A stretch of 5,317 nucleotides of DNA from a virus (lineage: Duplodnaviria > Heunggongvirae > Uroviricota > Caudoviricetes), in the IMG/VR virus record IMGVR_UViG_2541047680_000003. One strand, given 5' to 3'. The notes below the pieces were generated by a model. That model saw only the letters and a program-made list of their open reading frames with translations. It ran no database searches and was not told where the DNA came from. Shown here in pieces: positions 1,649-5,317 of this stretch; position 1 is the stretch's first letter, and every line of letters begins with the position of its first letter. Made by a program: the position numbers and the translations under genes.

Positions 1649-1680
1649 TACTACGCTGCGGTAAATCCCGCAGCCGGGAC

Positions 1681-1704
1681 TCTCAACCCCGAAATCCGAA
1701 CGAC
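1681..1704 (+). promoter_or_regulatory. Upstream antisense target boxes (seqA / a1-b1 analogue): TCTCAAC 1681..1687 and CCGAACGAC 1696..1704
   Basis: 1681..1687 is complementary to the single-stranded GUUGAGA of the ncRNA (1814..1820). 1696..1704 is complementary, with one G-U pair, to the 9-nt loop 1799..1807. The order and spacing fit antiparallel pairing. Confidence 0.5.
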
Positions 1705-1708
1705 GCAC

Positions 1709-1731
1709 AACACGCGCCAGCGTGTTTTTTT
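1709..1731 (+). terminator. Rho-independent terminator / attenuator in the immunity leader
   Basis: Stem AACACGC (1709..1715) and GCGTGTT (1720..1726), loop GCCA, with a run of seven T at 1725..1731. It sits between the upstream target boxes and the structured RNA. Confidence 0.65.
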
Positions 1732-1762
1732 GTGTGTATAAGCCTGCGCATATCCGAATTAT

Positions 1763-1838
1763 GGTAGCTCAGGCGGGGCAGCCGAAAGGCTGGCCGGTGT
1801 CGTTTGGGCCGGTGTTGAGAACCCCGCTTGGGCTACCA
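1763..1838 (+). ncRNA. Structured antisense immunity RNA of the P1 C4 / P4 CI / N15 CA type (tRNA-like; probably excised from the leader transcript)
   Basis: A 16-bp closing helix (1763..1778 with 1822..1837, two G-U pairs) encloses a GAAA-tetraloop hairpin (1779..1792) and a second hairpin (1793..1813, 9-nt loop), plus an 8-nt single strand GUUGAGAA (1814..1821). ACCA follows the helix at 1835..1838. The loop and single strand are complementary to boxes both upstream and downstream. No long ORF in 1518..1897. Confidence 0.6.
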
Positions 1839-1849
1839 CCCTATAGAGA

Positions 1850-2062: not shown

Positions 2063-2292
2063 ATCAGGTAAAAATGAACACTGTTGGCCTGCTGGAGTCG
2101 TTGGATGAACGTCTGGCTCAGGTCTATGCGCTCGTGTCATCAGCCCATCGGACAGTATCCAGCTGTGAGGCGTCGATTTATCTATCAGAAGCCGGGAAGC
2201 TCCTTCAAATTGCGTGTGAGCTAACACACGAAGCACAGGGGTATTCAGCATCTCTCTCGTCGCAATTGCAGCACAATAAGGAGGCCAAATGA
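2059..2292 (+). CDS. Hypothetical protein (77 aa), middle gene of the antirepressor operon (AntA-like by position)
   Basis: ATG 2059 overlaps the upstream stop (ATGA), with GAGG at about 2048..2051. Its own stop overlaps the next start (ATGA at 2289..2292). Confidence 0.6.
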   Translation: MNQVKMNTVGLLESLDERLAQVYALVSSAHRTVSSCEASIYLSEAGKLLQIACELTHEAQGYSASLSSQLQHNKEAK

Positions 2293-3071
2293 GCGCGTTA
2301 GCTGTATTTTCGTTTCAGGAAGAGCATCAGGTTCGTGTAGTGATGATTGATAGCGATCCGTGGTTTGTAGCGGCTGATGTTTGTAATGCCATCGGGATTA
2401 TCAATCATCGTGATGCTGTTGGTAAGTTGGATGAAGACGAAAAGGGGGTCGGTTCAACAGACACCCTTGGAGGTAAACAGGGAGTGACAATTATCAACGA
2501 ATCCGGCCTCTATACCCTAATCCTCCGCTGCCGTGATGCGGTGAAGCAAGGCACAACAGCTTGGCGGTTTCGCAAATGGGTAACGAACGAAGTCTTGCCC
2601 TCTATTCGCAAAAATGGAGAGTACGTTTACATCGAGCCTGAGCCAATGCGAGCAGCGGAGCCGTTGAACTGGAGGCAGAAAGAGTATCTGCGAGGGCTGA
2701 TTAACGATATAGCACAAAGTTTTCAATACCGAAATGCCTGGATTAGTGGTGTATGGTTGGCTTTGCGTCGGGCGTGTCGTAATCCATCCCCGAACCCCAT
2801 AACGGTTGATGATTTGCCAGCAATTACGGCAGAACTGCGCCGGATTTTGACGGCTGCTGAGTCGGCATTGGGGAACATGCGCACGTATGAACGAGAGTTG
2901 TTGCGTGATGTTGTTCGTGGGGGTAGGCGGAGTATGTCGTGTGGTGATTTACCCATCACCGATATTAACTCTGATCTGGAAAAGGCGTTACCCGCGCATT
3001 TTGAACTGGCAGTTCAAAAACTTGAGCAGTTATCCGCGCAGCTAAAGCCAGCAGAAATCACCAATAAATAG
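2289..3071 (+). CDS. ant: Phage antirepressor with an N-terminal Bro-N-type domain (260 aa)
   Basis: The N-terminal 110 residues (FSFQEEHQVRVVMIDSDPWFVAADVCNAIG ... ESGLYTLILRCRDAVKQGTTAWRFRKWVTNEVLPSIRKNGEY) fit the Bro-N / antirepressor N-terminal domain pattern as I remember it. Strong RBS AAGGAGG (2278..2284). Translationally coupled to the upstream gene. Confidence 0.8.
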   Translation: MSALAVFSFQEEHQVRVVMIDSDPWFVAADVCNAIGIINHRDAVGKLDEDEKGVGSTDTLGGKQGVTIINESGLYTLILRCRDAVKQGTTAWRFRKWVTNEVLPSIRKNGEYVYIEPEPMRAAEPLNWRQKEYLRGLINDIAQSFQYRNAWISGVWLALRRACRNPSPNPITVDDLPAITAELRRILTAAESALGNMRTYERELLRDVVRGGRRSMSCGDLPITDINSDLEKALPAHFELAVQKLEQLSAQLKPAEITNK

Positions 3072-3242: not shown

Positions 3243-5126
3243 TTAACCGAAATATGTCAGCCATGCTAACTGCATTGCTGACATGGGGCTGTTTGCACTG
3301 CCGGACCACGCATAATTCTGGCCATTATAATGAAACTCGACAACGTATGAGCCATCACCAATATTTCTCACTGGCTTAAATACCGGCTTAGATACAGGCG
3401 AAGAAGGTGCAGGCGGTTGCTGTTCTTCTACGCTCTCTTCCTCTATCTCAATTTCGTCGTCATCCAGATCGTCATCCTCTGATAATTCATCCGCCAGTTC
3501 AGGTATTGCTTCCAGTTCTTCTTCGTCAGGCATAACGATTTCTGGAGTATCTATTTTCAGTTGCCATTGTCCGTTTTCGCCAACAAATTGCCCCAGAGCA
3601 TCAGCAGCAAATTCCAGGTATCGACTAATCATTGTTGGGCTAAATTTGAACGCTCTTAGAGTGCTGTTCGTGATTTTTATAGAGGGGTCCTGCTCTACCA
3701 GCTGCTTAACTGTGTTATGCAGACGAACCCCGGCATCTCCTCTGGCGAATCCAGGCATTTCGTCATCAAGCTGCTGCAATGCTTCCAGCCTGGTATTTTC
3801 GTTTCCAGTATTTGGCCTCCATGTCTTTGAGAAGTTGGCCAGCTTGAATTGCTTATAGTGTAATTGAGTGTTTTCATCGTCATGGCCTAAGATTTCCATA
3901 AAGAAAACATCCTCATCTACGTTTTTCCAACGAGGATCTACGCGGAAAAACATTTCATACGCAATACGGGCATAAATAGCACGACTATCTTTATAAACAC
4001 GGCGGTTATCTTTGAAAAATGATTTAACCCACGGGTTAAAAGCCTTTGCTAATATGGCATTAATACGTCCGTTTTCAGAGCGTGTGTCGTTATCTCCATA
4101 ACCTTTAACGACATCATCAAAATCAGATGCTGCTGGGCATGAGCGAAGTACATTTATTAAATAAACAAATGTTTTTGCTTCGCATAATGTATATATTTTT
4201 CTGGTTATATCATCAGAAGTTCTTTTTTTAGCTTGGCCTAAAAAATCAACGGTATACTTACCAGAAACAGTAAATGTACCTTGATACATAATCTCAATCA
4301 TTCGTCTTCCTGACAATGCAGCAAGTGCAAATGCCAAAGGAGCCATACCTGAACGAGTGTTTAGATTATTTAATGTAGCAGGGCTATTTATAATATCGTA
4401 AATAGCTTGCATATATTTAGGGTAATCAATGACCACCACGTTACGTTTCTTATTGTGCAGAACGTCCGCCCATCGTTGCTGGATAGATGCGCGTTCGGCA
4501 GGGCTTAGTTGAAGATGATAGAGAATCTCATGGTTAACTTTTAGCTGATTCAACTCCTCAAGCAAGGCAGATCCTTGCTGTAGTAATTTATATAAATAAT
4601 CGCGCTTATCTTTCCAGTTATCGCTAGTTAAATCAGAAATGGCGAATTGCCACTCTTTATATTTATTTGATAATTTTAATAACTTATTATGGCTTTTGTT
4701 ATCACCAATTCTGATATTAGATAAATCTTCTGATAAAGGGAGAATTAATTTTAATTTTGCCTGTAAAGCTGACATTCTCTGGCGAATATCGGCAGCAGGT
4801 AGAGAAAGCCATGACAATAGCTCCTCATTATATAAAGGATACTTTTCAGATAGGCGATGTATATTTTTTTCAAAGCTATGATGAAGTTTATCATCAAACC
4901 GTTTTCTGGCCCTGCTCATATATGCATTGAATGTGTTGGCTGTAATTCTTTTTTCTAATCCTTTCCCCCTAAACTTTCGCTTGTCATTAAATAATGCATT
5001 TTTAAATTTTAATGCAACAGCCTTTATTTTTTTTGTTTTTTCCCCTTGAGGACGGTCAGAGTTATCTATTGACTCAACATCGCTAACAAGTGAGTTTATT
5101 AATTCACCGATTTTTACTTTGCTCAT
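3243..5126 (-). CDS. telN: Protelomerase (telomere resolvase), TelN/TelK family, 627 aa
   Basis: Length and overall sequence match my recollection of N15 TelN (631 aa). Tyr424 in QLHYKQF coincides with the published TelN catalytic Tyr424 (TelK Tyr425). RR at 274..275 and K300 are in tyrosine-recombinase-like positions. An acidic D/E linker (residues about 533..570) precedes a small C-terminal domain. Strong RBS (GGAGAGG on the minus strand) before ATG. The gene is adjacent to a half telomere palindrome. Confidence 0.93.
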   Translation of the reverse strand: MSKVKIGELINSLVSDVESIDNSDRPQGEKTKKIKAVALKFKNALFNDKRKFRGKGLEKRITANTFNAYMSRARKRFDDKLHHSFEKNIHRLSEKYPLYNEELLSWLSLPAADIRQRMSALQAKLKLILPLSEDLSNIRIGDNKSHNKLLKLSNKYKEWQFAISDLTSDNWKDKRDYLYKLLQQGSALLEELNQLKVNHEILYHLQLSPAERASIQQRWADVLHNKKRNVVVIDYPKYMQAIYDIINSPATLNNLNTRSGMAPLAFALAALSGRRMIEIMYQGTFTVSGKYTVDFLGQAKKRTSDDITRKIYTLCEAKTFVYLINVLRSCPAASDFDDVVKGYGDNDTRSENGRINAILAKAFNPWVKSFFKDNRRVYKDSRAIYARIAYEMFFRVDPRWKNVDEDVFFMEILGHDDENTQLHYKQFKLANFSKTWRPNTGNENTRLEALQQLDDEMPGFARGDAGVRLHNTVKQLVEQDPSIKITNSTLRAFKFSPTMISRYLEFAADALGQFVGENGQWQLKIDTPEIVMPDEEELEAIPELADELSEDDDLDDDEIEIEEESVEEQQPPAPSSPVSKPVFKPVRNIGDGSYVVEFHYNGQNYAWSGSANSPMSAMQLAWLTYFG

Positions 5127-5170
5127 CTTTCCTCTCCTGATTATCCGCTCGGATTATCGTAACACAATTT
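5127..5170 (-). promoter_or_regulatory. telN translation-initiation and promoter/operator region (RBS, GATTATC direct repeats, small dyad ATCCG-CT-CGGAT)
   Basis: On the minus strand the motif order is TTGTGT, 16 nt, GATAAT, then CAGGAGAGGAAAG and ATG. The GATAAT element occurs twice (plus-strand GATTATC at 5139..5145 and 5152..5158). The exact -35/-10 assignment is uncertain. Confidence 0.35.
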
Positions 5171-5249
5171 GAGAATAAGATAACTAATAACGCGTTAACT
5201 TAGCCACAAACTAACAGAACACAATAACGGATAGTAAACAAAAACACAA
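5161..5249. repeat. Three direct copies of AACACAAT (5161..5168, 5218..5225, 5242..5249) upstream of telN; candidate accessory protelomerase-binding (tos-like) repeats
   Basis: Seen directly. The motif resembles the CACA(C/T)AAT segment inside the telomere half-site (5295..5303) and the CACACAAT of the remembered N15 telRL. Confidence 0.5.
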
Positions 5250-5290
5250 TATCGGAACGTTAAAAATTGTTCCTTGACTTTGTTCTGAAG

Positions 5291-5317
5291 ATCAGCACAT
5301 AATTCCCCATTATACGC
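5291..5317. other. Half of the telomere resolution palindrome (telO/telRL half-site); the window ends at the dyad centre, implying a hairpin telomere
   Basis: ATCAGCACATAATTCCCCATTATACGC differs at only about three positions from the left half of N15 telRL as I recall it (TATCAGCACACAATTGCCCATTATACGC|GCG...). The last bases CCATTATACGC equal the left half of the 22-bp telO palindrome. Confidence 0.8.

Follow-up and report, generated by a model that had tools for sequence, protein, structure and literature searches.

Three conserved direct repeats between telN and the telomere of an N15-like linear plasmid prophage are probable extra copies of the protelomerase half-site box

The window, meaning the whole 5317-bp stretch of DNA that was analyzed, is the telL (left) end of an N15-like linear plasmid prophage. 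The gene nearest the telomere is telN, which is transcribed away from the end. Its product has four Pfam domains (TelK_N, muzzle, ResT/TelK catalytic, and stirrup), its closest solved homologue is TelK (PDB 2v6e, E = 1e-294), and it shares 77% amino-acid identity with N15 TelN. The last 59 residues (3243-3422, minus strand) follow an acidic linker and constitute CTD2. A single-sequence AlphaFold model of CTD2, considered as a candidate reader of the repeats described below, is a small beta-beta-beta-alpha domain (pLDDT 79), and a PDB fold search with this model gave no match at E ≤0.001 (best E = 0.15). The 191 bp from the telN start to the window end (5127-5317) are 32-35% GC with a strong A skew on the plus strand and contain no ORF of 20 or more amino acids. 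The features of this end of the window are as follows.

3243-5126, minus strand: telN, protelomerase of 627 amino acids, from the ORF list
5131-5138, minus strand: Shine-Dalgarno sequence AGGAGAGG of telN, read from the sequence, 4 nt upstream of the ATG
5139-5158, no strand assigned: 20-bp near-palindrome GATTATCCGCTCGGATTATC, holding two GATTATC copies and a dyad; lineage-specific
5156-5164, minus strand: predicted proximal telN promoter, TG at 5164-5163 and -10 TACGAT at 5161-5156; overlaps repeat 1
5161-5168, plus strand: repeat 1, AACACAAT, 157 nt from the telO center; the extended unit ATCGTAACACAAT begins at 5156
5172-5175, plus strand: invariant AGAA after repeat 1, in conserved columns, with its N15 counterpart inside AACACAATCAAAGAACA
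5218-5225, plus strand: repeat 2, AACACAAT, 100 nt from the telO center
5226-5221, minus strand: predicted distal telN -10, TATTGT, the reverse complement of repeat 2; spacer of 17 nt from TTGTGT
5243-5250, plus strand: repeat 3, AACACAAT, 75 nt from the telO center
5249-5244, minus strand: predicted distal telN -35, TTGTGT, the reverse complement of repeat 3
5279-5287, plus strand: inverted AACA-type element TTTGTTCTG, abutting the half-site box; identified as an inverted repeat with conserved columns
5291-5303, plus strand: outer box of the TelN half-site, ATCAGCACATAAT, equivalent of N15 L3/R3 ATCAGCACACAAT
5307-5317, plus strand: half of the telO palindrome, CCATTATACGC; the window ends at the dyad center, the hairpin turnaround

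Several other features accompany this region in the window and its relatives. An Rfam isrK Hfq-binding RNA (1655-1730, plus strand, 56.9 bits) is followed directly by a C4 antisense RNA (1757-1843, plus strand, 74.4 bits); both exceed their gathering scores, and a terminator-like hairpin is located at 1709-1726. This arrangement is typical of the P1/N15-type immA anti-repressor control locus. The ORF at 2289-3071 (plus strand, 260 amino acids) has a BRO-N domain and is probably an antirepressor controlled by the upstream C4-type RNA. The cI-cro intergenic region of the Escherichia phage PhiR46_1 (9170-9215) has two copies of TTATAGCTGGCTATAA, one of which reads ...GGCTTTAA, and these copies have a TTATA-N6-TATAA frame in common with the telO core TTATACGCGCGTATAA.

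The window terminus ...ATCAGCACATAATTCCCCATTATACGC (5317) continues in relatives as the mirror half GCGTATAATGG..., giving ...TACGC/GCGTA... across the center, and the window therefore stops at the center of the telO palindrome. The matching end of PhiR46_1 is annotated as the telL site. The locus has several components of an N15-type tos site. The telO palindrome is centered on TACGCGCGTA and the window terminates in ...CCCATTATACGC at 5317; the L3/R3-type box ATCAGCACATAAT matches N15 ATCAGCACACAAT at 12 of 13 positions; the three AACACAAT copies occupy the place of the degenerate box copies (L1, L2 / R1, R2) in the flank; and telN is the adjacent gene for a protelomerase of the TelN/TelK family. 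The TGTT at 5281-5284, within TTTGTTCTG, is at least 90% conserved. At 5304-5305, which separate the outer box from telO, the sequence varies freely (TC, TT, AC, and TA) in relatives with 97% identity, and the outer box and telO are fixed in the same relatives. Free variation between two fixed elements fits bipartite half-site recognition. A promoter-like sequence directed into the telomere (TTGACT-18-CATAAT, 5274-5303, plus strand, 10 of 12 matches) has its -10 inside the half-site box, and its -35 has no conservation in N15 or phiKO2.

The 8-mer AACACAAT occurs three times within 90 bp and nowhere else on either strand of the window. A preliminary description of this DNA had reported three direct repeats; the copies are exact, beginning at 5161, 5218, and 5243, and the last extends one base beyond the end at 5249 given there. 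The expected number of copies in the window is 0.32, and none of 200 shuffles contained three or more. Since the region is A-rich, a stricter dinucleotide-preserving shuffle was restricted to 5127-5317. Any 8-mer reached three or more copies in 65 of 10,000 such shuffles (p ~0.0065). The resemblance to the telomere half-site that had also been proposed was borne out: the half-site box of the window contains the 8-mer CACATAAT, which matches AACACAAT at 6 of 8 positions, and the other-arm box of relatives contains AACATAAT.

Relatives of the window arm were collected to determine how these copies are conserved. Identity to the arm is 97-98% for the Escherichia phages YDC107_1 and PhiR46_1 and 95-99% across about 28 plasmids from E. 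coli, E. albertii, E. fergusonii, and Shigella. It is present in 17 of 5426 complete E. coli genomes and is plasmid-borne every time. For N15, phiKO2, the plasmids of Enterobacter, and the elements of Klebsiella and Citrobacter, the identity is 68-76%. Sequence-pattern scans of collections returned 8 metagenome and 11 viral loci, and a search of the genome contig collection with the TelN N-terminus found no relative. Twelve lineages were aligned from the telN ATG to the telO center. Column conservation averages 0.93 over the three 8-nt motifs, compared to 0.94 over the TelN half-site, taken as the last 28 nt, and 0.67 over the rest of the intergenic alignment; the compared lineages are related, so the counts of conservation and orientation are only partly independent. 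When three 8-nt blocks are placed at random, a score of 0.93 is reached with a permutation p = 5e-5. None of the 12 lineages departs from AACACAA in repeat 1, and the distance from the telN ATG to the center is 193-195 nt in every one of them. The window, N15, and phiKO2 have copy starts at 157, 100, and 75-76 nt from the center in common, and these positions are identical although the intervening DNA is only ~70% identical. Further conserved blocks are AGAA at 5172-5175 and the inverted TGTT beside the half-site box. The copies thus match the telN-side repeats of N15 and phiKO2 position for position in the alignment with the N15 tos region that the preliminary description had suggested, and their conservation in relatives is at the level of the half-site itself.

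The motif is not confined to the telN arm. AACA[CT]AA copies fill both arms in N15, Enterobacter, phiKO2, KpLi5, Citrobacter, pEA8_3, and RHBSTW-00124, and the flanks of six lineages contain 37 copies directed toward the center and 2 directed away. The other arm of the close relatives pEA8_3, RHBSTW-00124, and PhiR46_1 holds 2 to 9 center-directed copies. The outermost pair in N15 is a perfect 17-bp inverted repeat, AACACAATCAAAGAACA, located 151-167 and 141-157 nt from the center, and repeat 1 is the counterpart of one of its arms. The position of this pair fits the 310-bp natural target given in the literature. The complete PhiR46_1 genome has six AACACAAT copies versus an expectation of 1.5, and five of the six are no more than 180 bp from one of the two hairpin ends, toward which they are oriented. 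Isolated motif copies in PhiR46_1 are AACATAAT upstream of a primase/repA-type gene and AACACAAT at the start of parA, at coordinates 8337 (minus) and 45790 (plus); these could be chance occurrences because about 3 AACAYAAT are expected genome-wide.

The telR-arm types differ among close relatives. PhiR46_1 has the box ATCAGCACATAAT, compared to CGAAACATAAT in pEA8_3 and RHBSTW-00124, where the box is preceded by a dense AACAYAA array at 12-13 bp spacing. The telR arms appear to have been exchanged between otherwise similar elements. In YDC107_1, p53EVA-1, and many PLSDB records, the assembly reads through the hairpin or was deposited as circular. Read-through records contain an inverted duplicate of the telN arm, such as a second 'protelomerase domain protein' beyond the telomere; they are assembly artefacts, and the 'other arm' in them is not real.

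These data bear on another account of the copies, that they arose by chance in A-rich DNA or are neutral leftovers of duplication around the palindrome. A GC content of 32-35% and the strong A skew do raise the odds of A-rich words. The local shuffle (p ~0.0065) took this composition into account, conservation at the half-site level has p = 5e-5, the positions are identical despite flanks of ~70% identity, and the orientation is 37 toward to 2 away. Chance or relic duplication is very improbable.

The relation between the copies and the half-site is clearest when distant protelomerase phages are compared. Of the 13 positions compared between the Klebsiella-lineage unit ATCATAACACAAT and the outer half-site box ATCAGCACACAAT, 11 agree. 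The other-arm box of pEA8_3 and RHBSTW-00124 itself reads ...CGAAACATAATT..., and so carries AACATAAT. A lineage at 55% TelN identity has the box TATCGTCACAAAT and the repeats TATCGTAACATAA and TATCGTAACACTA. The PY54 half-site contains AATAGGTTAC, and GGGTTAC occurs three times on its tel side. A 23-nt unit that matches the phiHAP-1 half-site is present six times in phiHAP-1, and VP882 likewise repeats its own box. A box-by-flank matrix shows that each box recurs only in the flanks of its own group. Across four unrelated box types, the motif therefore co-varies with the half-site of the protelomerase, which is the strongest computational argument for the protelomerase itself as the presumptive ligand.

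Published work on N15 provides the framework for these observations. N15 has a natural target of 310 bp, and its telRL spans 56 bp and includes the 10-bp L3/R3 motifs (PMC12624138, EMBO J 2025). That study also describes at least two degenerate copies (L1, L2 / R1, R2) flanking N15 L3/R3 (PMC12624138). Since the motif occurs on both arms and is directed at the center, and PY54, phiHAP-1, and VP882 repeat their own boxes, the window copies are identified, as a group, with these published degenerate L3/R3 copies. We consider it probable that the three AACACAAT sequences represent additional, degenerate versions of the half-site outer box in the telN (telL) arm of an N15-type tos. The earlier proposal of accessory repeats like those of N15 tos holds at the level of homology, given the same telN-side positions, half-site-level conservation, and the published description of L3/R3 copies. 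The copies are conserved counterparts of the known N15 accessory repeats, so they are an ordinary feature of N15-like linear plasmid prophages. TelN is most likely the protein that would bind them, judged from sequence comparison. Several points weigh against the extra-box explanation: only 6 of the 8 repeat positions agree with the half-site box of the window, telRL of 56 bp reportedly suffices for processing, a flanking inverted repeat is dispensable in P840, CTD1 is inessential for end protection, and the promoter predictions are ambiguous.

A different protein, whether from the host (a nucleoid or replication factor) or from the prophage, could instead occupy the boxes and organize the telomere-proximal DNA or regulate telN and sop. 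Conservation, orientation, and fixed spacing prove selection and name no ligand, CTD1 is dispensable for end protection, and the isolated PhiR46_1 copies lie upstream of a primase/repA-type gene (AACATAAT) and at the parA start (AACACAAT). Co-variation across the four box types is hard to explain by a host factor common to Escherichia, Yersinia, Halomonas, and Vibrio, however. Consensus sites for IHF or DnaA were not recognized on reading the sequence, and the 20-bp palindrome and the boxes are unlike the cI-cro operators. A ligand other than the protelomerase is thus improbable.

If the copies are extra half-site boxes, TelN would bind them as well as the catalytic site. The domain that recognizes L3/R3, for which the literature suggests the stirrup or CTD1, is the most likely to read them. 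Replication duplicates the arm head to head (telLL), and both sides of the substrate would then carry the same set of three boxes. Accessory binding would raise the local occupancy of TelN and help to assemble or stabilize the resolution complex, and it would keep TelN on the finished hairpin as a cap. TelN probably remains on the hairpin product or ends (PMC12624138). Binding of CTD1 to all box copies as a protective assembly was called 'conceivable' (PMC12624138), and CTD1 is not essential for end protection (PMC12624138). The 56-bp telRL alone is reportedly enough for TelN processing in vitro and in vivo (PMC3540006), and the flanking inverted repeat of Yersinia phage P840 is dispensable (PMC10612081). 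By these two results, the boxes are not essential for catalysis.

The copies also overlap the predicted telN promoters. Each copy reads ATTGTGTT on the telN strand. ACGAT follows repeat 1 on this strand and completes TGT-TACGAT, a predicted extended -10, and TGnTAYGAT is kept in nearly all N15, phiKO2, KpLi5, and Citrobacter lineages. The sequence GTTACGAT is also kept in the tel-proximal PY54 repeat, ~40 nt upstream of PY54 tel. The distal pair, TTGTGT-17-TATTGT, has a better counterpart in N15 (TTGTGT-16-TATTAT). A strict consensus promoter scan found no minus-strand promoter, and several promoter candidates score similarly.

The copies might accordingly be conserved as sigma-70 elements of telN promoters and not as protelomerase sites. 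Repeats 3 and 2 supply TTGTGT-17-TATTGT with its improved N15 version, repeat 1 yields TGT-TACGAT in most lineages, and both tos arms have outward genes (telN on one, sopAB or parAB on the other). Against this, the motif recurs every 12-13 bp in the other-arm arrays (as in AACACAAataaagAACACAA), where not every copy can be a promoter hexamer, it agrees with the TelN half-site box at 11 of 13 positions, and the repeats of PY54, phiHAP-1, and VP882 are unrelated in sequence and track their own half-sites. A promoter function can coexist with TelN binding and does not replace it, and as the sole reason for conservation it is unlikely.

The overlap of the copies with both predicted telN promoters makes autoregulation of telN through the AACACAAT copies plausible. 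Occupancy of the repeats by TelN would exert negative feedback on telN transcription. The preliminary description had suggested that telN expression is coupled to protein binding near the telomere; such coupling is plausible through the AACACAAT copies and unsupported through the GATTATC pair that it had named. A tentative extension, possible but with the odds against it, is an array of dual purpose. TelN at 75, 100, and 157 nt and on the mirror copies would form a shelterin-like cap or loop and at the same time occupy the telN promoter elements. If so, the free TelN left after coating of the telomeres would set protelomerase synthesis. This would be a bacterial case of telomere-coupled gene control, and the fixed distance of 193-195 nt would reflect that architecture.

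The GATTATC pair was analyzed separately. The two GATTATC copies span 5139-5145 and 5152-5158, a further one lies at 2396, and the dyad ATCCG-CT-CGGAT spans 5143-5154. The 20-bp GATTATCCGCTCGGATTATC is symmetric at 16 of 20 positions, and both the pair and the dyad belong to this single element. Three or more GATTATC copies occurred in 15 of 200 shuffles. An exact 7-mer repeated within 20 nt was found in 17.9% of local shuffles, so the pair alone is not unusual. The element reaches from the predicted proximal -10 to about +9 of telN, next to the Shine-Dalgarno sequence. It is confined to the window's own E. coli lineage. The pair and dyad are absent from the N15, Enterobacter plasmid, phiKO2, Klebsiella, and Citrobacter relatives; N15 has GGATATC at this position and phiKO2 has nothing comparable. 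The 38 copies of the element fall into three variants. The major form accounts for 31 of them, GATTGTCCGCTCGGATTAT for 4, with GATTGTC, which breaks a predicted pair, and GATTATCAGCTCTGATTAT (GATTATCAGCTCTGATTATC) for 3, on two independent contigs, with a compensatory C>A/G>T double change. The predicted RNA hairpin is weak (-4.3 to -5.8 kcal/mol, z -1.1 to -2.0), and transcription of telN from the proximal promoter would leave the 5' arm of the near-palindrome untranscribed.

The near-palindrome could be an operator or a weak leader hairpin. A functional element of its own, either a palindromic operator or a 5'-leader RNA hairpin, would account for the 16/20 symmetry, the compensatory variant GATTATCAGCTCTGATTATC on two independent contigs, and the location between the predicted -10 and the Shine-Dalgarno sequence. 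Its absence from the N15, Enterobacter, Klebsiella, and Citrobacter relatives, the 17.9% of local shuffles that yield a 7-mer pair, the weak hairpin, the pair-breaking GATTGTC variant, the lack of a second copy in a relative's genome, and an untranscribed 5' arm if the start is the proximal promoter make this rather doubtful. No second copy of the near-palindrome, which would have hinted at a known repressor, was found in the PhiR46_1 genome. An operator for the prophage repressor was rejected on this uniqueness in PhiR46_1 and on the different appearance of the cI-cro operators (TTATAGCTGGCTATAA), and the values of -4.3 to -5.8 kcal/mol with z -1.1 to -2.0 did not support a stable RNA hairpin. 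The minus strand at 5150-5141 reads GAGCGGATAA, a 10-mer within the near-palindrome that also occurs in lacO1 (AATTGTGAGCGGATAACAATT); AATTGTG lies 14 nt upstream of it. This resemblance is probably a coincidence that involves a single half-site-like piece.

The GATTATC sequences flanking a dyad at the telN promoter and ribosome-binding site are present as first described, and they do not exceed chance (15/200 shuffles; 17.9%). The step from this element to control of telN was not supported as stated, given its absence from relatives, its weak hairpin, its ordinary statistics, and the missing second genomic copy. What remains is a weakly supported, lineage-specific near-palindrome. The preliminary observation is thus partly confirmed and its interpretation partly supported.

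The quantitative comparison places selection on the accessory boxes of tos at a strength equal to that on the catalytic half-site. It also gives these boxes fixed positions, a uniform orientation, and co-variation with the half-site across distant protelomerase phages. Published work shows that the 56-bp core suffices for the reaction, and the latest study only speculates that the boxes recruit extra TelN into a protective assembly. Three identical copies over predicted telN promoter elements are a clean, small substrate for tests of binding, capping, and autoregulation. The boxes are also relevant to linear vectors based on TelN/tos, which vary in the amount of flank included.

The window most resembles the N15 tos region. 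In both, telN adjoins the site and is transcribed away from it, the telO core is TACGCGCGTA, the copies lie at the same three positions of the telN arm with the same distance from ATG to center, and the N15 box ATCAGCACACAAT is nearly the same as ATCAGCACATAAT in the window. The N15 copies are AACACAAT, AACATAAT, and AACACAAC, whereas all three in the window are exact AACACAAT. The intervening DNA is ~70% identical, the window lineage adds the near-palindrome where N15 has GGATATC, and close relatives of the window carry a denser other-arm array than N15, sometimes with the box CGAAACATAAT. The phiKO2 (TelK) and Klebsiella/Citrobacter N15-like prophages have the three positions, the orientation, and the invariant repeat 1 in common with the window. 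They differ in a longer unit, ATCATAACACAAT, that is closer to the half-site box (11/13), and in an inverted GATTATCGTAACACAG-type unit that abuts telRL. PY54, phiHAP-1, and VP882 likewise repeat the outer half-site box between the palindrome and the tel gene, and the tel-proximal copy of PY54 carries GTTACGAT. Their boxes are unrelated (GGGTTAC; TAGGGC..TATGTATG), and their protelomerases have 28-41% identity.

The accessory (arm-type) sites of site-specific tyrosine recombinases such as lambda Int offer a functional parallel. Binding of Int to its arm sites in attP is experimentally established and essential. By analogy, the boxes may be seen as extra copies of a recognition sequence outside the cleavage core, which a non-catalytic domain of the same enzyme would read and so assemble a higher-order complex. 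The two systems differ in what the core can do: the telomere core alone reportedly suffices for the reaction, whereas Int depends on arm binding.
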